UHGV virus genome: UHGV-0390448
Length of the DNA stretch: 64,000 nt
Strand: one strand, 5' to 3'
DNA from: a virus
Below the pieces are notes generated by a model. That model searched no databases. It was not told the origin of the DNA and saw nothing but the letters and a program-made list of their open reading frames with translations. Shown in pieces: positions 2,044 through 38,051 of the stretch. Both the position numbers and the translations under genes were made by a program. The stretch's first letter is position 1. Each line of letters opens with the position of its first letter.

Positions 2044-2912
2044 TCGATCACTCCGTTTTGAGTGGTATCAAAGTTCCTGGCCGGGATGCAGTAATAAAGG
2101 GAACCAACGTGTTGTGTTCCGTAGCTGAAGATTCGATGCACGTACCACCAGCGGCGGGCGAGGCCATTCGCCATTTCTTCGTTCCATTCCAGGATTGAAC
2201 CAACAGGTACGTTGTTTGCAGCAATACGCAGGATTAGCACTTCATCAGCAAGACCATCCTGTTCTCCATCGGCATCAATGGCATGAAACGAATCCCTTCC
2301 GTCCGGGTTATCCAGGACGTATACGATTTCCGGTTCCAGATAGGTAAGCTCACGCTGGTTGTTGTCCAGTTGCGTGAAAGACTCTTCACCTGTTTCATCG
2401 TTTACGACGCCATAGGTGCCATCAGCCGGGCGATATAAAAGCGCCTCGAATGCGTCAGGGCTTGATTCAATAATGAGCATCCAATCGGCGCGGATCTGGT
2501 CGTTGAACGCTTTGTGTCCGTTATATCGGGTTTTAAGCTGCTGGTTTGGTTGTCTGTTAGCGAGCGATGCCGGTAGGGGGGCGATGTCAGGTTCAATCAC
2601 TTCCGTAACAGAGTCACCAGCATTATCAGGCCAATTATCATGGCGGCTATCTGCTTCGGTGGCAGCGTGTTCTTCCAGAATACTGAATGGCCCTGTACTG
2701 ACCTTCCCATTTTCCGTTGTGCTTCCTTCATTCGCTTCAACCGTCGTTGTCTCTTCTCTCTGCGTGCTGTCATGTTCTGTTCCCTTTCTCATCAGGCTTG
2801 CATCATCAGCAAACCATTCATCAAAACGGCCCATAAGCGTCCTCAAAGGTCGATTTATCAGGTATCGAGGGGCATTGTCAGGAGATTGTGATTTCAATTC
2901 ATATCCCAGCAT
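2040..2912 (-). CDS. Phage protein, acidic, unknown function
   Basis: 290-aa ORF, first gene of the minus-strand block ending at window start. Confidence 0.55.
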   Translation of the reverse strand: MLGYELKSQSPDNAPRYLINRPLRTLMGRFDEWFADDASLMRKGTEHDSTQREETTTVEANEGSTTENGKVSTGPFSILEEHAATEADSRHDNWPDNAGDSVTEVIEPDIAPLPASLANRQPNQQLKTRYNGHKAFNDQIRADWMLIIESSPDAFEALLYRPADGTYGVVNDETGEESFTQLDNNQRELTYLEPEIVYVLDNPDGRDSFHAIDADGEQDGLADEVLILRIAANNVPVGSILEWNEEMANGLARRWWYVHRIFSYGTQHVGSLYYCIPARNFDTTQNGVIE

Positions 2913-2950
2913 GGGACTAAAGTGCTTTACATTGTCCCATATTGGGACTA
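2904..2950. promoter_or_regulatory. TGGGAC-containing inverted and direct repeats upstream of higB; candidate operator
   Basis: atgggac (2911-2917) and gtcccat (2934-2940) form an inverted repeat; ttgggacta repeats at 2942-2950; 30-70 bp upstream of the higB start. Confidence 0.35.
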
Positions 2951-2978
2951 CTATACTTTCAGAGAGAAGGAATCTGTG

Positions 2979-3281
2979 ATGAAAATAATTTCGGTAAAAA
3001 CACTAAGGGATTTCTGGGCGAAGAATCCCGATGCAGAACAGCCATTAAAGGCATGGGTTGATGAAGCAACAAAGGCTGACTGGAAAAATCCGGCTGAGAT
3101 CAAAGAACAGTACCGGACAGCCAGCATCCTTAAAAACAGGCGCGTGGTGTTCAATATTAAGGGAAATGATTACAGGTTAATTGTCGCAATTGCTTATCAG
3201 CGAGGATGGATGTTCGTTAAGTTTATTGGAACACATAAGGAATACGATGCCATTGACGCGGATACAATAGAACTGGAGTAA
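2979..3281 (+). CDS. higB: Type II toxin HigB family (RelE-fold mRNA interferase)
   Basis: About 100-aa product from internal ATG (MKIISVKTLRDFW...), followed 4 nt later by an HTH antitoxin; sequence pattern matches HigB-family toxins from memory. Confidence 0.75.
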   Translation: MKIISVKTLRDFWAKNPDAEQPLKAWVDEATKADWKNPAEIKEQYRTASILKNRRVVFNIKGNDYRLIVAIAYQRGWMFVKFIGTHKEYDAIDADTIELE

Positions 3282-3284
3282 ATC

Positions 3285-3644
3285 ATGAACATTAAACCTA
3301 TCCGTACAGAACAAGATTATGAGGCCGCACTGCGTGCGGTCGAACCGATGTTCGATAACGAACCGGAAATGAACACCCCGGAAGGTGATTTCTTTGAGGT
3401 CATGTGTCTTCTCATTGAGGAGTACGAGAAAAAACATTACCCAATTGAGCCACCATCACCTATTGAAGCCATTAAATTCCGCATGGAACAGCAAGGGCTG
3501 ACCGTGAAGGATCTGGAACCGGCAATTGGTAAGTCAAACCGTGTTTACGAAGTGCTAAATGGAACACGAAATTTAACGTTACCTATGATTCGTCGTTTAC
3601 ATTCCCAGTTTGGCATTCCTCTTGAAAGTTTGGTTGGTGTATGA
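3285..3644 (+). CDS. higA: HigA-family antitoxin, XRE-type HTH in C-terminal half
   Basis: 119 aa; HTH-like segment LTVKDLEPAIGKSNRVYEVLNG; immediately downstream of higB. Confidence 0.75.
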   Translation: MNIKPIRTEQDYEAALRAVEPMFDNEPEMNTPEGDFFEVMCLLIEEYEKKHYPIEPPSPIEAIKFRMEQQGLTVKDLEPAIGKSNRVYEVLNGTRNLTLPMIRRLHSQFGIPLESLVGV

Positions 3645-3646
3645 GT

Positions 3647-3675
3647 TCGGCGGTCTGTATGACCGCCTTTGTTGT
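3647..3675 (+). terminator. Rho-independent terminator after higBA
   Basis: ggcggtc-tgtat-gaccgcc hairpin followed by tttgttgt. Confidence 0.55.
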
Positions 3676-3678
3676 CAA

Positions 3679-4875
3679 TCAAGAACCTTTCTTCACGTAC
3701 TCCATAAACATTTTTTCAGCTTGCTCAGGTGACGTTCCTGTCATGACCAGCGCATCAATGAACGCTTGCTTCTTCAGTGCGAATTGATCGGCAAGGCGTT
3801 GCTGAAGCTCCTTGTTTTTCTGTTTCTCACGTTGCAAGGCTGCTTCTTTTGCTGCTGCCCGTTTTTTTTGTGCATCGGACAACTTTCTGGCCCTGGTCAG
3901 CTGGTCACGTAGCTTGTCAATCTTGCCGTTGTCCTTTGCCAGTTTTGTGCTTAAAGCGGCCTGGCGTTTCTGATAGAGCTTCCATTCACGTTTAGCTGCC
4001 TCAACATTCGTTTTGCTGCTACGGTTTCGATTGAACGCCTTCTCGTCTTCTTTTGTGAAGTGTTTTGTCGTGCGGCGGCGATCGTCACCAAAGGCAACTT
4101 GCGTTGCAGCTTTTTGCAGGGCGCGAGCAATACTCATCTGCCAACTGGCAGACTGTAGTCGTGTCATTGAGTGGATCACATGTTTACAGGCGACGCCTTG
4201 CAGCTTAGGGTTGCGAACTTTTGGATAGGCGTATTCTTTTGGCGGGGCCAGGGCAAAGTTACCCGCAGTGGCGATGTAGCGATACCAGTATTGATGGCGA
4301 CCGCAGTCACAGTCGAAAGACACTCGCCCGGCACACAGTGATTTTGTGACTTTCAGGGCTGATTTATCATCTTCTGCGATGTCATCGACCATCTGATCCC
4401 ATTCTTCAAAACGTACCCGGACAATGTGGTGCTGGTGAACGGATATATCGGACGCTTCCACTCGGATATTAATCACATTGTGACGAAGAGATACGGGCGT
4501 AGCTCTTTTGATACCAGAACCGTCGTCTACGGCGTTATTTGCTCGCTTAATATCGATAGCCTGGCTGGACGCTACCAGTTGTGCGTATGTGATGCCAGCC
4601 GTCTTGCTGTCATATTTTTCGCGTGCTTTGCTTCGCAGCTTTTCGAAGCCTTTCAGATCGTCACGCGTAAAGAACGTGCCGCCTTTCTTTTTCCCCAGCT
4701 TAAGAATGTCTTCGGCTGATTTATTCCTAAGCCTGCCCGGCGTGAGTGTCCTGTGCGCCTGGCGGCGTTTGCGGTTTTGCTCTTTCCTGATGAGTTCAAA
4801 TACGCGTGTGAAATCCTTAGAGGACAGACCGTTAGTGATATATCGCCCGTCCTGATTTTTCAGGAAGTCAGGCAT
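3679..4875 (-). CDS. Hypothetical 398-aa protein with SWIM-like CxC...CxH zinc-finger motif and lysine-rich coiled-coil C-terminus
   Basis: Motif FDCDCGRH...GVACKHVIH; overlaps upstream gene 4868-5197 by 8 nt (operon). Confidence 0.6.
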   Translation of the reverse strand: MPDFLKNQDGRYITNGLSSKDFTRVFELIRKEQNRKRRQAHRTLTPGRLRNKSAEDILKLGKKKGGTFFTRDDLKGFEKLRSKAREKYDSKTAGITYAQLVASSQAIDIKRANNAVDDGSGIKRATPVSLRHNVINIRVEASDISVHQHHIVRVRFEEWDQMVDDIAEDDKSALKVTKSLCAGRVSFDCDCGRHQYWYRYIATAGNFALAPPKEYAYPKVRNPKLQGVACKHVIHSMTRLQSASWQMSIARALQKAATQVAFGDDRRRTTKHFTKEDEKAFNRNRSSKTNVEAAKREWKLYQKRQAALSTKLAKDNGKIDKLRDQLTRARKLSDAQKKRAAAKEAALQREKQKNKELQQRLADQFALKKQAFIDALVMTGTSPEQAEKMFMEYVKKGS

Positions 4876-5197
4876 TTTCTATCTCCGGTGCCGAGCCAGC
4901 GTAATCGCGAATCTTGTTTCTTAGCCATGCTGCGTCAGGAAGAGTTAACGTTGTCCCTACCGGCATTTCTTCCATTTCTGACTCATGGCCCACCAGCACG
5001 CGAAATACCCAGCGCAAATCAGCATTGCCATAGGCGCGATAGGCCGCCAGGTCTGAGCGATAAACCTCATCAATTTTTATCGTGTACTGGAAATTATCGG
5101 AGTGATACTCCGATACCCGCTTGATCATCTCCTGATGGAATAGTGCGCGCAGCACATCGTCTTCAATGCATCGATCGTCGAGCCTGCTGTAACTCAT
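4868..5197 (-). CDS. Small protein with tail-protein-X-like (LysM-like) C-terminal region
   Basis: 109 aa; C-terminal pattern RSDLAAYRAYG...VGTTLTLPD resembles P2 gpX-type LysM-like domain (recalled, not searched). Confidence 0.45.
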   Translation of the reverse strand: MSYSRLDDRCIEDDVLRALFHQEMIKRVSEYHSDNFQYTIKIDEVYRSDLAAYRAYGNADLRWVFRVLVGHESEMEEMPVGTTLTLPDAAWLRNKIRDYAGSAPEIENA

Positions 5198-5289
5198 AAC
5201 AGTTCCTCACAGTCATAACCTGTGGGGAACTGTATGCAGGGTGTGAAATGCGGGAAAGCAGCGTCACCTGGCCTGGTGACGCTGTAAAA

Positions 5290-5571
5290 TTATGCGTGGG
5301 AAAATAATGGACGGATGTTTGGGCGAGCGGTTTGCGAAGCAACCCAAAGCTCATACTGGGATTGCATACCGGTCCACATTTCGGCACTGGTTCCAAGAGC
5401 GGACTCCAGACGAAGTGCCATATCAGCAGAAATACCTGTTTTTTCGTTCAGAATTCGGGAAAGTGCCGTGCGAGTAATGCCTAATGCAGCAGCTGCGTCT
5501 GTGACTGACATGTCTCCCAAATATTCACGAAGAACCGCGCCTGGATGCGCGGGATTATGCATACGACTCAT
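5290..5571 (-). CDS. HigA-family HTH antitoxin-like protein
   Basis: 93 aa starting [18 protein letters not shown], the characteristic N-terminus of HigA-type antidote proteins; 4-nt overlap with upstream HTH gene. Confidence 0.65.
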
Positions 5572-5867
5572 ATGTGGAAAGCAACCCGTTTACCGGTTGG
5601 CAATTCAACGTCCAGACTCAACTTTCCACCCATAGCCTCAACGTAACGTTTAAGCGTTGCTACTTTCAAGTCATTGCCTCGTTGTTCAAGTTTTGTGATG
5701 GCTGGTTGACTAATTCCCATCGCATCGGCAACTGTTTTTTGTGATAACTGAAGCTCCTCTCTCAACATCTGCAATCCGACTTCCAGAATCATTTCATCAG
5801 CCTGCTCTTTGATACGAGCTTGGCTTTCAGGGGATTGCGCAGCAATAACTTCTCTTAGAGTTCTCAT
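5568..5867 (-). CDS. XRE-family HTH protein, probable antitoxin of adjacent RelE/ParE toxin
   Basis: 99 aa; HTH segment [22 protein letters not shown]; start overlaps toxin stop by 1 nt. Confidence 0.65.
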
Positions 5868-6214
5868 TATTTTTTCTCAAGTTCTGCAAGATGGTTGGAA
5901 AATTCGTCGTCTGCAATCCGTATCATTCTTTCGTAGAACTTTTTATCGTTACTCTTATCTCCGGCGCACAGGATTATGGCTTGCCTTACCGGATCAAATG
6001 CGAAGAATGCTCTGATAGGGCGACCAGCGTACTGAATCCGTAACTCCTTCATGTTTTTATGGCGTGAGCCTTTAACTGTGTCGGCATATGGCCTTGATAA
6101 TGAAGGGCCATATGTTTCCAGATTGATCAGGTCAACCAGGATTTTTTCTTTTAATGCAGGTTCCTGTTCCTGGAACCATTCATCAAAAATTTTTCCAAAA
6201 TAAATTTGCCACAT
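5867..6214 (-). CDS. RelE/ParE-superfamily toxin (Gp49-like addiction module killer)
   Basis: 115 aa; toxin-first arrangement followed by HTH partner; perfect palindrome upstream. Confidence 0.65.
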   Translation of the reverse strand: MWQIYFGKIFDEWFQEQEPALKEKILVDLINLETYGPSLSRPYADTVKGSRHKNMKELRIQYAGRPIRAFFAFDPVRQAIILCAGDKSNDKKFYERMIRIADDEFSNHLAELEKK

Positions 6215-6250
6215 AGTTATTCAAAATCCTTTTTAATAAACTACATGTTA

Positions 6251-6285
6251 TAAACTACAGGTTATATCATATAACCTGTAGTTTA
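6251..6285. promoter_or_regulatory. Perfect 17-1-17 palindrome, candidate autoregulatory operator of the RelE/ParE locus
   Basis: taaactacaggttatat-c-atataacctgtagttta; lies 37-70 bp upstream of the toxin start; adjacent direct repeat of aaactaca. Confidence 0.6.
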
Positions 6286-6319
6286 TATTTTCAAGGCCAT
6301 TTTTTATTCGATTTAGCAT

Positions 6320-6973
6320 TTAAAGTATCACGGTATCCTCATCAACTTCTTTCCCTGCCAGTGACTTTGGCTGGGAGGCTGCTGCTTTAACCTTCTCATG
6401 CCCAATAATGGACAGGAACGAGGCCATTATCCCTGCTTTGTTTTCTTTCTCTACCGCTCCTGTCATTTGTTTCAGGTAATCCGCGCTGGCAACATTGTGG
6501 TATACCGTTGCATAGCAGCACAGAATCATCAGGATGTGCTCTGGTCGGATATCTTGCCAGTTAACTCGATAAACCTCTTCACCGTTGCCGTTGTATTCGG
6601 TATCGACGATAGAGTCGGGGATCTCAAATGCCCCTTTGTTCTTGTCAGGCAGGGATAGCAGCCTTTGTAGTTTCAGCTCCCGGTATCTTTCCATGCCGAC
6701 AATGATCGCCGCTCTGCCGTCGGCGTGCCGTGTTTTTAATGTTACCTGACTGGCACCTGTACCGGCTGAAATGGTTGGCGTGATTTCGTCAACCAGCACC
6801 TTAAATTCACTTTTACGCAGCTCGGCAATTGCTGGTGGAATTTTTCGTTTTTGTTCAATAGCAGATGCAGGGAGCGGCTTTACTTTGTCAATTACAAGCG
6901 CGCCGTCTTTCAGGACTGCCGTAGCCATCAGCGGCTTGTTAGTCGAAAGGCTGAATATTGCGATCTTTTGCAT
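6320..6973 (-). CDS. Hypothetical protein, 217 aa
   Basis: ORF with strong hairpin-T7 element just upstream of its start; no family recognised. Confidence 0.5.
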   Translation of the reverse strand: MQKIAIFSLSTNKPLMATAVLKDGALVIDKVKPLPASAIEQKRKIPPAIAELRKSEFKVLVDEITPTISAGTGASQVTLKTRHADGRAAIIVGMERYRELKLQRLLSLPDKNKGAFEIPDSIVDTEYNGNGEEVYRVNWQDIRPEHILMILCCYATVYHNVASADYLKQMTGAVEKENKAGIMASFLSIIGHEKVKAAASQPKSLAGKEVDEDTVIL

Positions 6974-6998
6974 GGCTTTTACTCCACGATAGCAGGCA

Positions 6999-7031
6999 CA
7001 AAAAAAGGCCGCACATGGCGGCCTGCTTTGG
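6999..7031 (-). terminator. Rho-independent terminator, minus-strand orientation
   Basis: ggccgc-acatg-gcggcc stem with a 7-8 nt A-run on the plus strand, equivalent to a U-run on the minus strand. Confidence 0.5.
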
Positions 7032-7238
7032 CGTTATGACTCCCTACCGCGCATCGGCTGAAAGTTAGTCGTCAAAAGAACCTTCAACGGGAGCCGTTTG
7101 CGTAATGGATTTTGTCCAGATTGTGATTTCCAGAATAGTGTCAACAATTTTTTTGAATTTTTTATTCGCTCTGAATTTGGCCTAGGTCATTTTGGCGTAG
7201 ATGTTTGCTTTTGTAACATAAAGCTTCAGTTTGTTTAC

Positions 7239-7862
7239 ATGAAGGATGGTTTTGTGAAGTTAAGGGTTTTGGGAGCAGTGCTCGCGGTTATATTGGGGGG
7301 AGTTTCTCTTAATGCTGCCTATGCAGGCGCGTTACCTGCAAAGTATGAGGCTGGGCTGAAGGTGTTACGAAACGCCAAAACAAACTATACGCCTGATGAA
7401 GTTTCAAACTATTGCCAGAAAGAAAATATCCCACTGAAACCTGTAGAGCCATTCTTTAAAAGCAACATAGAGTTCTGTGTATTTGCGTATGCAGCAGATG
7501 AAACAGGAAAGGCCATACAAAAGACAGGGTATTCCACCAAAGACACAATGTCAGTGTTAAGTAACGGCGTGTTGCAGTTTGAGCTTTATCGTCAGCAAGG
7601 AATGGGAGATCTATTGCAGCCTTTGTATGGTCTAGCATTGGTGCCGGAAGGTCAGCAGTTTCTGATCAAAAAAGGCCTCATGAGGCAGGAAGATGTAGCT
7701 GGTTTCGATGCCATCGTTGCCTATGAAAAACAACTCAAGGAACAGCGCAATAAAAAACCATCTGCCTCATGCGTGCAAAGCAAAACAGCAGAATACAGCG
7801 CAGTGGCTGGGCCTTTAGCCCCACAAATGGCAGAGCAATGGTGTAAACAATACGGGCAATAA
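7239..7862 (+). CDS. Secreted protein with N-terminal signal peptide (moron)
   Basis: Start chosen at internal ATG (MKDGFVKLRVLGAVLAVILGGVSLNAAYA...); the track ORF begins earlier at 7098. Confidence 0.55.
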   Translation: MKDGFVKLRVLGAVLAVILGGVSLNAAYAGALPAKYEAGLKVLRNAKTNYTPDEVSNYCQKENIPLKPVEPFFKSNIEFCVFAYAADETGKAIQKTGYSTKDTMSVLSNGVLQFELYRQQGMGDLLQPLYGLALVPEGQQFLIKKGLMRQEDVAGFDAIVAYEKQLKEQRNKKPSASCVQSKTAEYSAVAGPLAPQMAEQWCKQYGQ

Positions 7863-7882
7863 GTTACGCAGCGGAGGCAGAA

Positions 7883-8275
7883 TTGAAAAGATTAGCTATT
7901 GCTTTATTGGCAGCTTTCCCTTTGATCGCTCACGCCGGGAATTTACAAGTGAAGTGCGGTAGGTTTGATATAAAAATCTATCCGAACGCCATATTTCTGA
8001 ATGGGAATAAGGTCGATAACGCGCACCGGAAAACTGAATCTGACGTAATGAGCTATGTGTTCCAGGAGTATGCCGAGATGGGGGGAACTTACACGTTGTA
8101 CTCGCTGGATGTTCCATCTCGCGGTGATATGACGTTATCTCATCAATGGCAGAACGCCGATGGCGAAGCTCTGCGCGAGGTTAAAACAGAAAAATGTGGC
8201 ACTTTCCATTCTTTTAAAGGGAAAGCGCCCAATGTTAAATCTACGCTTGAAAAACAGCGTGCTGGTGAGCTTTAA
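7883..8275 (+). CDS. Secreted protein with signal peptide, TTG start
   Basis: MKRLAIALLAAFPLIAHA signal-like N-terminus; ggagg RBS 6-10 nt upstream of the TTG. Confidence 0.55.
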   Translation: MKRLAIALLAAFPLIAHAGNLQVKCGRFDIKIYPNAIFLNGNKVDNAHRKTESDVMSYVFQEYAEMGGTYTLYSLDVPSRGDMTLSHQWQNADGEALREVKTEKCGTFHSFKGKAPNVKSTLEKQRAGEL

Positions 8276-8610
8276 ACCCCTTTAATCACGGAGATTTCGT
8301 TTCCCGCACGATAGCGGCGGGGAACGGAACTCTCCATCAGGTCACGAATTACTCCCGCTTCACGCAGTTCCTCTGTCTCCCAGTATCTGTTTGTCACCAG
8401 GTCAAGGCTGGCAATGACTTTATGCCGGTCATTCGGCATTGCTTCTTTTTCAGCCATTATCATCAGTGAGAACTCTTCATCCAGTAGAATTTGATACCAG
8501 ACTTTTGACAGTTCCAACTCTCTAATGAGGGTGAAGCGCCGCTCAATTGTGGCAGCAGAATAAGTGAAATCTATTTTTTTGGTGGCATACATTTTGCTGT
8601 GTCCGGTCAC
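8272..8610 (-). CDS. Hypothetical protein, 112 aa
   Basis: ORF only. Confidence 0.4.
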   Translation of the reverse strand: MTGHSKMYATKKIDFTYSAATIERRFTLIRELELSKVWYQILLDEEFSLMIMAEKEAMPNDRHKVIASLDLVTNRYWETEELREAGVIRDLMESSVPRRYRAGNEISVIKGV

Positions 8611-8649
8611 TTAGTAGTTAAAGCCCCGGCATGACCGGGGCAAAAGCTA

Positions 8650-9576
8650 TTAACTAATAATCCAGTCGGTTGCTGCTACATCTTCTGGCTGCAAATCAAT
8701 CGCACAGATCTTACCGTCGCGAATGGTGCGCCAGTTTTTCCGTGAGCCTCTTTCGGGCCATACCCAGACACTTTCAGGCCAGGATGCTCGACGGCATACG
8801 GTTGCATACCCTGTTTTAATCTTCTCTCTGGCGGTATGCAACGACAGGTTTGCCTTTGGACTTTCAGGCACAGGATGGTGAATGGCCTGAAATAGCCCCA
8901 TCCTGGGATGATACCAGCGTTTGTTACGTGGTTCTGCCTCCGACATAACCTGCTTAAAGGCTTTCCGGAAGGGGGCCAGGGCCACAATGGAACGTCGCGC
9001 AAGCAAACCGTCGGGAGTTAAAAACTCATGCGTATCAGTGGGTATCCGGTAAGCGTTGACCAGGTTACGGCATTTGGCTTCAGTCAGGCCACATTTCGCC
9101 GCCAACTGGCGGTAGCCAATGTAGCCTTCCGGAATATTGCCTTTCTTGATCTGCTCGACGGTTTCAGCGACTTTGGACACTTGTGCCGATACTTCGGCTA
9201 CCTGGGCATTAACAGCGTTGATCCGGCGTTCATGCTCAAGATGCATTTGCGCCATTTCAGCCAGGATTTCGGCTTTTGATTTTAACGGTCCCCTGGCATT
9301 CTCCAGTTCGCGCCAGCGGTCCACCAGCCGGGCGGTGAATTCCGGAGAGAGCTGTGCGACGACAATGATACTATCGCGCTTGCCTTGCTCGCCTTCGAAG
9401 ACGTAATAGCTCGCCGGGCGGCCTGCGGTGGGCTTTTCCTCAATTTGAGGAAAAGATATTACGCCCCGTTCCGCCAGGTGTTCAATGGTGCGTTTAACGT
9501 TATCAGGGCGCTTACCTACCAGTTCCGCGATCTCAATGCTGGTCATTGTCGCTTTTTGAGAGATGGACAGATTCAT
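8650..9576 (-). CDS. Phage regulatory protein, Rha family (antirepressor-like), copy 1, intact
   Basis: N-terminal MTSIEIAELVGKRPDNVKRTIE matches the Rha/Bro-N pattern; paralog of 50112-51016. Confidence 0.7.
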   Translation of the reverse strand: MNLSISQKATMTSIEIAELVGKRPDNVKRTIEHLAERGVISFPQIEEKPTAGRPASYYVFEGEQGKRDSIIVVAQLSPEFTARLVDRWRELENARGPLKSKAEILAEMAQMHLEHERRINAVNAQVAEVSAQVSKVAETVEQIKKGNIPEGYIGYRQLAAKCGLTEAKCRNLVNAYRIPTDTHEFLTPDGLLARRSIVALAPFRKAFKQVMSEAEPRNKRWYHPRMGLFQAIHHPVPESPKANLSLHTAREKIKTGYATVCRRASWPESVWVWPERGSRKNWRTIRDGKICAIDLQPEDVAATDWIIS

Positions 9577-10603: not shown

Positions 10604-11221
10604 CTAATTTATTAATTCAGTCACCATCTGATACAACGTCATTTCATCAGCATTGTGCCGCCTGAAATCTGCTTTGCCGCCTATTTTTCCATCAGCATGA
10701 ACAGGGACCAACCAGGGGTATTGCTCGCGTATCTCTGCTGGCGCTGCGTGTTGATGGTGCCATTTACACAAAGGGAGAACGTATTTATGCGCGTTCTCTG
10801 CCGTTCTCCCGAAGATGTGGTGCAGGGATACCACAGGGCTATGCTGTCCGTGCATATGGCAGGCAATGCAGGGGAGGGCACCGATGGCAGTTTGTATCCG
10901 GCGCTCATCTGCTGTGAGTGTTCTGCCTTTCAGGCCGCGTGACGCGCGAGTTTTTTTGACAGGAGCAGAAGCGGCCTTCTCTTTTCTTCGCTGTTCATAT
11001 TGCTTCGCTTTTTCAATTTTCTTTTGCCGATATTCAGGCGATGCGGCTTTTTCTCGCGCACGCTGCTGCTGGCGTTGAGCTTGCTGAAGACGTTTTGCCC
11101 TTTGTTCCTCCCGCCATTTCGGATCAGCCAGTTTTTGCAGGGCTTTTTGTGTCTGTTTCTCCCAATAGCTTTGCTTCATAGAAATACCCGGTTTGTCTAC
11201 ATCGCCGCTATGGTTGATCAA
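10604..11221 (-). CDS. ref: Ref-like HNH endonuclease (recombination enhancement function)
   Basis: Highly basic, low-complexity N-terminal half plus C-terminal CIACHMHGQH...CKWHHQH HNH-like motif, as in P1 Ref. Start may be the internal ATG at 11179 rather than the TTG at 11221. Confidence 0.6.
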   Translation of the reverse strand: MINHSGDVDKPGISMKQSYWEKQTQKALQKLADPKWREEQRAKRLQQAQRQQQRAREKAASPEYRQKKIEKAKQYEQRRKEKAASAPVKKTRASRGLKGRTLTADERRIQTAIGALPCIACHMHGQHSPVVSLHHIFGRTAENAHKYVLPLCKWHHQHAAPAEIREQYPWLVPVHADGKIGGKADFRRHNADEMTLYQMVTELIN

Positions 11222-11222
11222 A

Positions 11223-11256
11223 TGTGTTAGAAAATCAAAATTGATTTTCTAACACA
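11223..11256. promoter_or_regulatory. 34-bp palindromic operator (gttagaa-N14-ttctaac) upstream of ref
   Basis: tgtgttagaaaatcaaaattgattttctaacaca, 16-bp perfect arms. Confidence 0.6.
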
Positions 11257-36970: not shown

Positions 36971-37046
36971 TGGTGGCCCCTACCGGACTTGAACCGGTGA
37001 CCGTGCGATTATGAGTCGCCCGCTCTAACCACTGAGCTAAAGGGCC
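36971..37046 (-). tRNA. tRNA with CAU anticodon, most similar to tRNA-Ile2 (lysidine type); Met not excluded
   Basis: Reverse complement GGCCCTTTAGCTCAGTGGTTAGAGCGGGCGACTCATAATCGC...GGTTCAAGTCCGGTAGGGGCCACCA resembles E. coli ileX; CCA encoded. Confidence 0.8.
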
Positions 37047-37063
37047 AGATTACTGTTAATTAC

Positions 37064-37192
37064 GCTTACGCTTTTTGCCAGAACCGCGTAAGGCTTTTGC
37101 CGCTTGCTCTACCCCGTATGCAACCACCAGCAGAAACAATAATGTCCACTCCGGGTTTTTATCGGCAAACGCCCAAAAATCCATCACTTGCA
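37064..37192 (-). CDS. Small membrane peptide (about 42 aa) inside the tRNA operon, candidate
   Basis: aaggtgg RBS 7 nt before ATG; predicted MDFWAFADKNPEWTLLFLLVVAYGVEQAAKALRGSGKKRKRN. Below the ORF-track cutoff. Confidence 0.4.
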
Positions 37193-37474
37193 GCCACCTT
37201 TTAAGACAAACGCCATTGCTGTTAGGTTGCGGTGCCGGGTGCCTCCCGGTGACGTTAACCAGTTAACAATTAACGCCGGATCACTTATGGATTCTCGTTA
37301 CGCCAGTAAAAAGACCACCTTTACTGTTTTAACTGTTCCGCGTGCGCTTAGCCGCATTCACCGCAATGGTAAGAGCATTTGGCTGACTGGGCGGCGATGA
37401 CGCCTGTACGCATTTGGTGATCCGGTTCTGCTTCCGGCATTCGCTTAATTAGCCAAATACTCTTAACGTTGCGA

Positions 37475-37561
37475 TGGCGGAGAGTAATGGAATCGAACCA
37501 TCATCGCTTGGGCGACGGGACGGTTTTCAAGACCGCTTGAGCACCATGCTCCCTACTCTCC
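37475..37561 (-). tRNA. Atypical type-II tRNA, Ser-like (UGA anticodon)
   Basis: Anticodon arm GCGGT-CTTGAAA-ACCGT as in E. coli serT, long variable arm, T-loop TTCGATT, CCA encoded; D-arm non-canonical. Confidence 0.5.
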
Positions 37562-37719
37562 AGTGATTGTGGTGGTCGGTGCTGATCTCCGACTGCGCCT
37601 CTTTTTTTCATAGCCCATAAGGCCGGTCAGTGCGCTTGATGACTGAGGCATCGATATTTACTACGCCGCCTCGTTGCCATAGGGCGGACTTGCGCGCCAG
37701 CAACGCGCATTCACCACAA

Positions 37720-37793
37720 CGGTAAGGGTACTTCGTAGGGATTCGAACCCTCTGCCAAGCACGGCGATCTCCGACGTCGCAAAATACCCTTAC
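37720..37793 (-). other. tRNA-like fragment: perfect T-arm inside a 10-bp inverted repeat, no acceptor pairing or CCA
   Basis: GGTAAGGGTA...AGGG-TTCGAAT-CCCT...TACCCTTACC on the minus strand; cannot be folded into a canonical cloverleaf. Confidence 0.3.
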
Positions 37794-37802
37794 CTGTTGT
37801 GT

Positions 37803-37878
37803 TGGTGCCGGTTAACGGACTCGAACCGCTGACATCCTGCTTACAAGGCAGGCGCTCTACCAACTGAGCTAAACCGGC
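37803..37878 (-). tRNA. tRNA-Thr (UGU)
   Basis: GCCGGTTTAGCTCAGTTGGTAGAGCGCCTGCCTTGTAAGCAGG...GGTTCGAGTCCGTTAACCGGCACCA; canonical cloverleaf. Confidence 0.85.
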
Positions 37879-37882
37879 AATT

Positions 37883-37969
37883 TGGTGGGGAGTGATGGAG
37901 TCGAACCATCCGAGTCGCAATGACAGTAGATTTACAGTCTACCCCGCTACCCCTACGGACTAACTCCCC
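37883..37969 (-). tRNA. Type-II tRNA, Tyr-like (GUA anticodon), atypical D-arm
   Basis: Anticodon arm GTAGA-CTGTAAA-TCTAC, long variable arm, T-arm GATGG-TTCGACT-CCATC, CCA encoded. Confidence 0.55.
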
Positions 37970-37974
37970 TAAAT

Positions 37975-38051
37975 TGGCGATGGTGGGTGGATTCGAACCA
38001 CCGACCGACAGCTTAGAAGGCTGCTGCTCTATCCTACTGAGCTACACCATC
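37975..38051 (-). tRNA. tRNA-Arg (UCU)
   Basis: GATGGTGTAGCTCAGTAGGATAGAGCAGCAGCCTTCTAAGCTG...GGTTCGAATCCACCCACCATCGCCA; resembles E. coli argU. Confidence 0.8.

Follow-up and report, generated by a model that had tools for sequence, protein, structure and literature searches.

Why should a toxin gene be followed by genes for two different helix-turn-helix (HTH) proteins, the second of them a HigA-type antitoxin that stands apart from its own HigB toxin? The question is raised by a three-gene locus in UHGV virus genome UHGV-0390448, of which we analysed a stretch of 64,000 nucleotides (nt; hereafter, the window). A preliminary description of the locus, whose coordinates and start-stop overlaps proved exact, allowed either for one toxin with two antitoxin or regulator partners or for a second toxin-antitoxin (TA) pair that had lost its toxin, the orphaned antitoxin being retained. 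Our results favor the latter. Specifically, comparisons with sister plasmids and with relatives of the toxin-XRE pair make it highly probable that two ordinary type II TA modules make up a chimeric locus, in which a foreign Gp49-XRE pair replaced higB and its promoter and left higA an orphan. The three genes are as follows (aa, amino acids):

5867-6214, minus strand: toxin gene, 115 aa, a Gp49-domain (HigB2-type) member of the RelE/ParE superfamily
5568-5867, minus strand: XRE-HTH antitoxin gene, 99 aa, predicted cognate antitoxin and autorepressor
5290-5571, minus strand: orphan higA, 93 aa, the third cistron, probably the antitoxin of a displaced HigB(PF05015)/HigA pair

The toxin and XRE genes share 1 nt (TAATG), and the XRE and higA genes share 4 nt (ATGA).

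Sister plasmids carry the same slot with a different content. In both pEC361_3 (an Escherichia coli plasmid of 90 kb, non-mobilizable), to which the flanks of the window are 95-98% identical, and pAPEC201603, it holds a canonical higB-higA pair, encoding a 93-aa PF05015 HigB and then a 93-aa HigA; the pair is also found on IncF plasmids. The HigA protein of the window is 100% identical to that of pEC361_3, where it follows PF05015 HigB. Alignment between the window and pEC361_3 extends over 3689-5572 (97.8% identity) and 6320-9000 (95.5%), with none between these two segments, and thereby delimits a candidate cassette within a slot bordered by homologues of phage P1 genes:

5573-6319, minus strand: predicted incoming cassette, 747 base pairs (bp), with promoter, operators, toxin and antitoxin genes and no terminator, in place of higB and its promoter
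6320-6973, minus strand: homologue of P1 mat (maturation control), bordering the slot upstream (as annotated in D6, L001 and L002)
4868-5197, minus strand: homologue of P1 gene 26 (baseplate), bordering the slot downstream (as annotated in D6)

The counterpart of the cassette in pEC361_3 is a non-homologous 624 bp that comprises higB and its promoter. One breakpoint falls at the stop codon of the mat homologue and the other just before the higA ATG; higA of the window no longer has its native Shine-Dalgarno sequence, GAGGAA, and its ATG shares bases with the XRE stop codon (TGA). The cassette further differs in base composition, with a G+C content of 40.2% against 50.4% for higA and 47-50% for the backbone. 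In light of this comparison, higB appears to have been displaced, not merely lost. By the identity of its flanks, which match phage D6 (a P1 relative) at 87%, the three-gene locus is carried by a D6-like (P1-related) E. coli phage-plasmid; in D6 itself, the slot between the mat and gene-26 homologues contains no TA genes.

We retrieved 30 sister loci from draft assemblies by exact protein match. All of them carry the 115-99-93 triple in the same slot, with the same gene order around it, on contigs of approximately 64-137 kb (most approximately 92 kb) whose neighbouring cassettes differ. Because both junctions are identical in all 30, the cassette replacement would be a single event, followed by spread or reassortment. 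Between copies there are 0-16 single-nucleotide polymorphisms (SNPs) over 1,131 bp, and higA is intact in every copy, with two protein variants. More widely, proteins identical to the toxin, XRE and HigA are encoded in 251, 266 and 246 contigs, respectively, all of them labelled E. coli or Escherichia. The identical triple was found in none of the complete E. coli genomes (5,426), PLSDB plasmids or phages searched, where just the higA part matches. The canonical HigB is common: its three commonest alleles occur in 388, 208 and 56 contigs, and HigB proteins 96-100% identical to the pEC361_3 partner toxin are found on E. coli D6-like and IncF plasmids. A few rare toxin variants (P0003, P0008, P0011 and P0012, in 1-2 contigs each) carry P37S, Y35S or a deletion of FFA (residues 70-72); P37S and Y35S alter nearly invariant residues and the deletion removes part of a conserved strand, and these may be inactivating mutations.

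The family assignments of the three proteins agree with those expected from the preliminary description, domain searches placing them in PF05973 (toxin), HTH_3/HTH_37 (XRE) and TIGR02607 (HigA). The toxin matches the Pfam Gp49 profile PF05973 at 76.9 bits (cutoff 23.9; E = 1.3e-21) over profile positions 1-89 of 90. A sequence search of the toxin against the PDB gave no match, and the relation was seen by fold comparison: with the AlphaFold2 model (predicted local distance difference test score, pLDDT, of 93.7), Foldseek retrieved Streptococcus pneumoniae HigB (6af3/6af4; template modelling score, TM, 0.72-0.77), RelE and Vibrio cholerae HigB2 (5jaa). Since the top PDB matches of the model are RelE or HigB toxins only, the toxin is predicted to adopt a RelE-like alpha/beta fold. 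The XRE protein begins with an N-terminal segment of approximately 30 aa, followed by an HTH at residues 32-88 that matches the HTH_3 and HTH_37 profiles, and by sequence its PDB matches are Mycobacterium tuberculosis HigA3 (6lty) and HigA2 (7ewc). The third protein is clearly HigA-like on profile search, matching NCBIfam TIGR02607 (antidote_HigA) at 97.9 bits, with an equivalog cutoff of 47.7, and its PDB matches by sequence are GraA (6f8s), Pseudomonas aeruginosa HigA and Proteus vulgaris HigA (4mcx). By these profile, fold and sequence matches, the toxin-XRE pair belongs to the Gp49-domain HigBA family and the third gene is a standard higA.

The defining arrangement of a HigBA pair, a PF05015 HigB gene that directly precedes higA, with one autoregulated promoter for both, is present in the sister plasmids L001-L003 and absent from the window, where the genes upstream of higA are those of the Gp49 toxin and XRE antitoxin. 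The absence of a cognate HigB, remarked on in the preliminary description, held up under a tblastn search of the window with the pEC361_3 HigB, which detected no PF05015 HigB, hidden or degraded (best E = 0.049, at 41.5 kb). Neither is there room for a short toxin open reading frame (ORF) between 5571 and 5568, because the XRE stop and higA start codons overlap. Nor did we find, inside the XRE gene, a promoter for higA itself.

The incoming pair, for its part, appears to be self-sufficient. We examined 86 relatives of it, made up of six close, aligned loci (four on plasmids and a Yersinia phage, two chromosomal) and 80 further loci, one per species. Every one of the 86 is a two-gene module, with the toxin followed by a 99-100-aa XRE orthologue. 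In the four close relatives on plasmids and the Yersinia phage, the XRE protein is exactly 99 aa, and an intrinsic terminator comes right behind the XRE gene in three of these four; the two chromosomal relatives are likewise two-gene. No HTH domain was present in the ORFs that start beside the XRE stop codon in the 80 species-level loci, and an intact third HTH cistron was found in none of the 86 relatives. Because all examined relatives are two-gene, the third gene does not seem to be part of the Gp49-XRE family architecture. A close relative of the pair, in Shimwellia blattae (L039-L041 1501-2150; 81% toxin identity), is found inside a type I-E CRISPR-Cas locus, with cse1 on one side and cas3 on the other.

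The promoter region also appears to belong to the cassette. The preliminary description reported a perfect palindrome here, which stands, although its extent was given as 17-1-17 at 6251-6285 and is actually 19-1-19 at 6249-6287. The predicted elements are:

6289-6294, minus strand: -35 hexamer TTGAAA of the predicted operon promoter
6266-6271, minus strand: -10 hexamer TATGAT, containing the palindrome centre (6268)
6249-6287, no strand: perfect 19-1-19 palindrome, 39 bp, 100% complementary, made up of predicted operator sites 1 and 2 in inverted orientation
6271-6286, minus strand: predicted operator site 1 (ATAAACTACAGGTTAT), inside the 17-nt promoter spacer
6250-6265, plus strand: predicted operator site 2, identical to site 1 in inverted orientation, next to the -10 hexamer on its downstream side
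6236-6251, plus strand: predicted operator site 3, with one mismatch, overlapping site 2 by 2 bp

On the minus strand, 5100-6400 contains no sigma-70-like site other than TTGAAA-17-TATGAT (10 of 12 matches). The palindrome is the longest perfect short-loop palindrome of the window, approximately 1e-6 of such size being expected by chance. Its repeated unit is a 16-bp ATAA-N8-TTAT motif, and the three matches to this motif, of which sites 1 and 2 are 21 bp apart from centre to centre, are the only ones in the window (0.44 expected by chance). All six aligned relatives have an ATAA-N8-TTAT repeat in a 17-nt spacer, with a second repeat 26-28 bp from the first, a -35 hexamer of TTGAAA in four two-gene relatives with 17-nt spacing and of TTGCAA or TTGTAA in two more, and a -10 hexamer of TATAnT or a close variant. 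Hence, with the motif shared by these two-gene relatives, the palindrome is probably the operator of the incoming toxin-XRE module itself. We considered and rejected a role in RNA, as a hairpin or terminator: with transcription predicted to start within the palindrome, just one arm would be transcribed, and the palindrome should therefore act on DNA and not RNA. Among the sister copies, the palindrome shows single changes; in L022, a symmetric double change at 6254 and 6282 keeps it perfect, both sites becoming ATAACC-N4-GGTTAT, while L020 has just one of these two changes, and L009 and the L011 group carry an A-to-C change at 6267, within the -10 hexamer.

A comparable arrangement at another position of the same phage-plasmid family suggests that the event was not unique. 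This second slot (2895-3688 of the window) lies between homologues of P1 gene 25 and gene 7, and in the window it holds a complete pair:

2979-3281, plus strand: PF09907 HigB gene
3285-3644, plus strand: gene for a 119-aa HTH antitoxin, partner of the PF09907 HigB

In D6 (orf70-72; L038 1515-2642), pAPEC201603 (L002 467-1594), L009 and L032, the slot instead contains a PF05015 HigB, a 112-aa HigA, a terminator, and then the 119-aa antitoxin, which is 95% identical in nucleotide sequence to the window copy and lacks its PF09907 toxin. The breakpoint is 7 nt before the ATG of the 119-aa antitoxin. In pEC361_3, a YjaZ-like gene occupies this slot. The pattern in which an incoming pair replaces the resident promoter and toxin while the resident antitoxin is kept would seem to have arisen at least two times in D6-like plasmids. 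The orphan 119-aa antitoxins show 9-13 synonymous and 2 non-synonymous differences, corresponding to a ratio of non-synonymous to synonymous polymorphism (pN/pS) of 0.04-0.06, and one orphan allele is identical to a paired allele. Two of the loci, L009 and L032, carry orphan-containing triples at both slots and hence two orphan antitoxins each.

Possible decayed counterparts exist outside these plasmids. In Pelistega indica (L098 2624-2770), the XRE stop codon of a Gp49-XRE pair is immediately followed by what remains of the C-terminus of a TIGR02607-type HigA (ETWLKMQLDYDLWQAEQ), an arrangement that resembles the outcome of the same overwriting event after decay. In the Gammaproteobacteria metagenome-assembled genome UBA6940 (L106 1466-1720 and 2685-2876), truncated N-termini of E. 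coli K-12-type HigA (MQIKPIKTEQDYQAAL...) flank a Gp49-XRE cassette, which suggests either insertion of the cassette into a higA gene or duplication of one.

Taken together, these observations lead us to propose the following sequence of events. The slot between the mat and gene-26 homologues would first have held a canonical higB-higA pair, and a single recombination would have put a promoter, operators, a Gp49/HigB2-type toxin and an XRE antitoxin in the place of higB and its promoter. By analogy with the family, the new toxin would be a RelE-fold, ribosome-dependent mRNA endonuclease that is neutralised by the N-terminal segment of the antitoxin, and XRE dimers, with the toxin as corepressor, would bind the ATAA-N8-TTAT sites and autorepress the operon. 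The pair would be expected to provide plasmid stabilisation by post-segregational killing, exclusion of competitors, or both. The anatomy of the locus makes higA a likely passenger, transcribed just from the new promoter and translated just by coupling to the XRE cistron: because its own promoter, putative operator and Shine-Dalgarno sequence are lost, HigA could be made only by read-through and translational coupling. As to why the replacement stopped where it did, addiction logic provides a plausible explanation, in that a recombinant losing higA alongside higB would be poisoned by residual HigB; both independent events would thus stop at an antitoxin start because survivors must keep the antitoxin. 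Any HigA still made should neutralise the HigB of sibling D6-like or IncF plasmids.

Two structures in and behind higA deserve mention. A GC-rich hairpin (CCGCGC-N6-GCGCGG, 5535-5552), 19 nt inside higA and followed by a T-containing stretch, is shared with canonical higA genes and may lower higA expression or be incidental. The second is 3' of the gene:

5259-5284, minus strand: GC-rich inverted repeat just 3' of higA, which may be a weak terminator left over from the higBA locus, although the terminator scan did not call it because of its poor T-run

What, then, does the third gene do? A genuine three-component system, with HigA as another antitoxin or a dedicated regulator for the Gp49 operon (like PaaR in PaaR-PaaA-ParE), would accord with three overlapping cistrons behind one promoter and with three operator copies, which could in principle serve two DNA-binding proteins. 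We nevertheless judge this to be very improbable. The complete lack of a third HTH cistron among the relatives of the pair, often with a terminator directly after the XRE gene, speaks against the one-toxin, two-partner option of the preliminary description; the operator type is conserved in two-gene relatives that have no HigA; this HigA is identical to the partner of a toxin from a different family, PF05015; and the XRE antitoxin has its own HTH, making a separate regulator needless. Between the two HTH proteins, moreover, similarity is confined to the helix-turn-helix (BLASTP E = 0.008 over 28 aa). That HigA has been re-used to control the transcription of other genes, of the plasmid or of the host, is improbable as well, if less markedly so. 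HigA-family proteins are DNA-binding repressors, and regulatory roles have been proposed for orphan antitoxins (PMC7192599). However, the putative HigA operator, a 12-bp palindrome of the canonical higBA promoter (TGTGTATACACA), is absent, even with one mismatch allowed, from the 64-kb window, to which the search was confined, the remaining ~28 kb of the plasmid and the chromosome lying outside it.

The remaining alternatives concern whether HigA serves the plasmid at all. One is that it is a recent neutral relic, kept for the survival of the recombinant or as a homology arm, with no present function and bound to decay, to which we assign close to an even prospect. The event is young, as the few SNPs among the 30 copies and their identical junctions indicate, higA has lost all of its own expression signals, the HigA fragments beside Gp49-XRE cassettes in P. 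indica and UBA6940 show that such remnants decay, and Klebsiella has many orphan antitoxins whose context matches that of a valid pair on the non-toxin side alone (PMC7192599). Yet higA is intact throughout the sister copies, an in-frame ATGA overlap is what continued expression would lead one to expect, and the second slot repeats the pattern with substantial synonymous divergence and few amino-acid changes. The other alternative, which we regard as plausible while inclining to doubt it, is that the orphan has been kept by selection as anti-addiction or anti-defence immunity against the HigB of D6-like and IncF plasmids or against HigB-based defence. Such a plasmid would kill cells that lose it and protect cells that lose an incompatible HigBA-carrying sibling or an IncF plasmid, thereby winning the competition or escaping HigB abortive infection. 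The combination expected for anti-addiction, a toxin-less antitoxin whose cognate toxin resides on competing replicons of the same host, is indeed found here, given how common the cognate HigB is on E. coli plasmids. The identity of the orphan to a paired allele, the full-length higA ORF that the fusion keeps coupled to the upstream cistron, the wide spread of the triple (approximately 250 contigs) and its reassortment with different flanking cassettes, the independent recurrence of the architecture at the second slot, and the six nucleotide differences among the orphan higA haplotypes (four synonymous and two non-synonymous) are all in line with immunity, a role proposed for orphan antitoxins in theory and reviews (PMC3415908, PMC7354431, PMC7192599). 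On the opposite side, the D6 second-slot orphan sits behind a terminator, the identical triple has no representative among the complete E. coli genomes or PLSDB plasmids, and the low pN/pS at the second slot is not attributable to the orphan state because alleles move between orphan and paired states.

Building on the immunity idea, D6-like phage-plasmids might repeatedly upgrade their addiction, each incoming pair overwriting only the resident toxin while the antitoxin, kept and co-expressed, confers immunity against the old toxin of incompatible siblings. We put this forward tentatively, as less likely to be right than wrong by some distance. Four points weigh against it or against the displacement scenario on which it builds. 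With a divergence of just 0-16 SNPs, intact higA in all 30 copies says little about selection, there being too little difference among the copies to detect purifying selection. Without a recognisable Shine-Dalgarno sequence and its own promoter, higA may be expressed at very low levels. The cassette donor was not present in the databases searched, the nearest toxin being 83% identical and the nearest DNA approximately 75%. Finally, the direction of the change, in which higB would have been replaced by the cassette, follows from the wide distribution of the HigB-HigA pair and not from a rooted phylogeny.

Set against known systems, the locus combines familiar parts in an unfamiliar manner. As in the Gp49-domain HigBA modules (Acinetobacter baumannii pAB120 HigBA2, M. 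tuberculosis HigBA2/HigBA3 and Tad-Ata), a toxin-first operon encodes a PF05973 RelE-fold toxin and an XRE-HTH antitoxin of approximately 100 aa, with predicted operators that overlap the promoter; in the Gp49-domain HigBA of A. baumannii, which has the same toxin-first order, the antitoxin represses the promoter and the toxin is a corepressor (PMC5906591). Unlike these, the module in the window lacks a terminator and is fused to a foreign third cistron, and unlike the two-gene Gp49 relatives, its operators are 21 rather than 26-28 bp apart, are inverted into a perfect 39-bp palindrome, and are joined by a third site. The third gene is a full-length member of the family of HigB(PF05015)-HigA(TIGR02607) pairs (Rts1/P. 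vulgaris HigBA, Pseudomonas putida GraTA and P. aeruginosa HigBA), although the window lacks the toxin, promoter, putative operator and ribosome-binding site of such a pair. The locus resembles PaaR-PaaA-ParE of E. coli O157:H7 prophages and TAC in having three small genes, including one for an HTH protein, and a toxin of the RelE/ParE superfamily, with co-transcription predicted here. The third gene of PaaR-PaaA-ParE and of TAC is conserved along with the pair, and regulation or the stability of the antitoxin depends on it, whereas the third gene of the window belongs to another TA family, and the gene order differs.

Orphan antitoxins and their anti-addiction role are established ideas (PMC7192599, PMC7354431, PMC12548467), and antitoxin-only "resistant" genotypes in plasmid conflict have been treated in theory (PMC3415908). 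The orphan described herein differs from those of Erwinia chrysanthemi ccd, which acts against F-plasmid CcdB, and of Klebsiella in residing on a mobile element and not on a chromosome. It further differs from these and from the four of Bartonella pVbh in being a coupled cistron on the displacing module, and from known orphan antitoxins in that the displacement event can be reconstructed base by base. The literature that we searched, with incomplete coverage, contained no description of such a tripartite operon, nor of the same event at two slots of one phage-plasmid family.

Beyond the two slots, five clustered tRNA genes (Met, Ser, Thr, Tyr and Arg) lie at 36971-38051 on the minus strand of the window. 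The second longest perfect palindrome of the window, 16-2-16 at 11223-11256 (TGTGTTAGAAAATCAA/TTGATTTTCTAACACA), lies directly upstream of an ORF for a Ref-like RecA-dependent endonuclease (10604-11221, minus strand).

All parts of the locus come from well-known families, from which no new biochemistry would be expected, and its interest lies in the junction. The latter records, to the base and population-wide (approximately 250 E. coli contigs), how one addiction module ousted the toxin of another and the older antitoxin persisted. For annotation, it is a caution that a toxin gene with two HTH genes behind it need not be a three-component system. The locus also provides a concrete test system for the notion that addiction limits which TA deletions are viable, and for orphan antitoxins as immunity in plasmid or phage-host competition; were the orphan shown to confer immunity in plasmid competition, the importance of the locus would rise. 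If the upgrading of addiction proposed above is true, an upgraded plasmid would displace its siblings without killing the host while imposing a new addiction upon it, and the two slots of the D6-like phage-plasmids would be natural snapshots of a plasmid TA arms race that has been predicted by theory and rarely documented at the sequence level.

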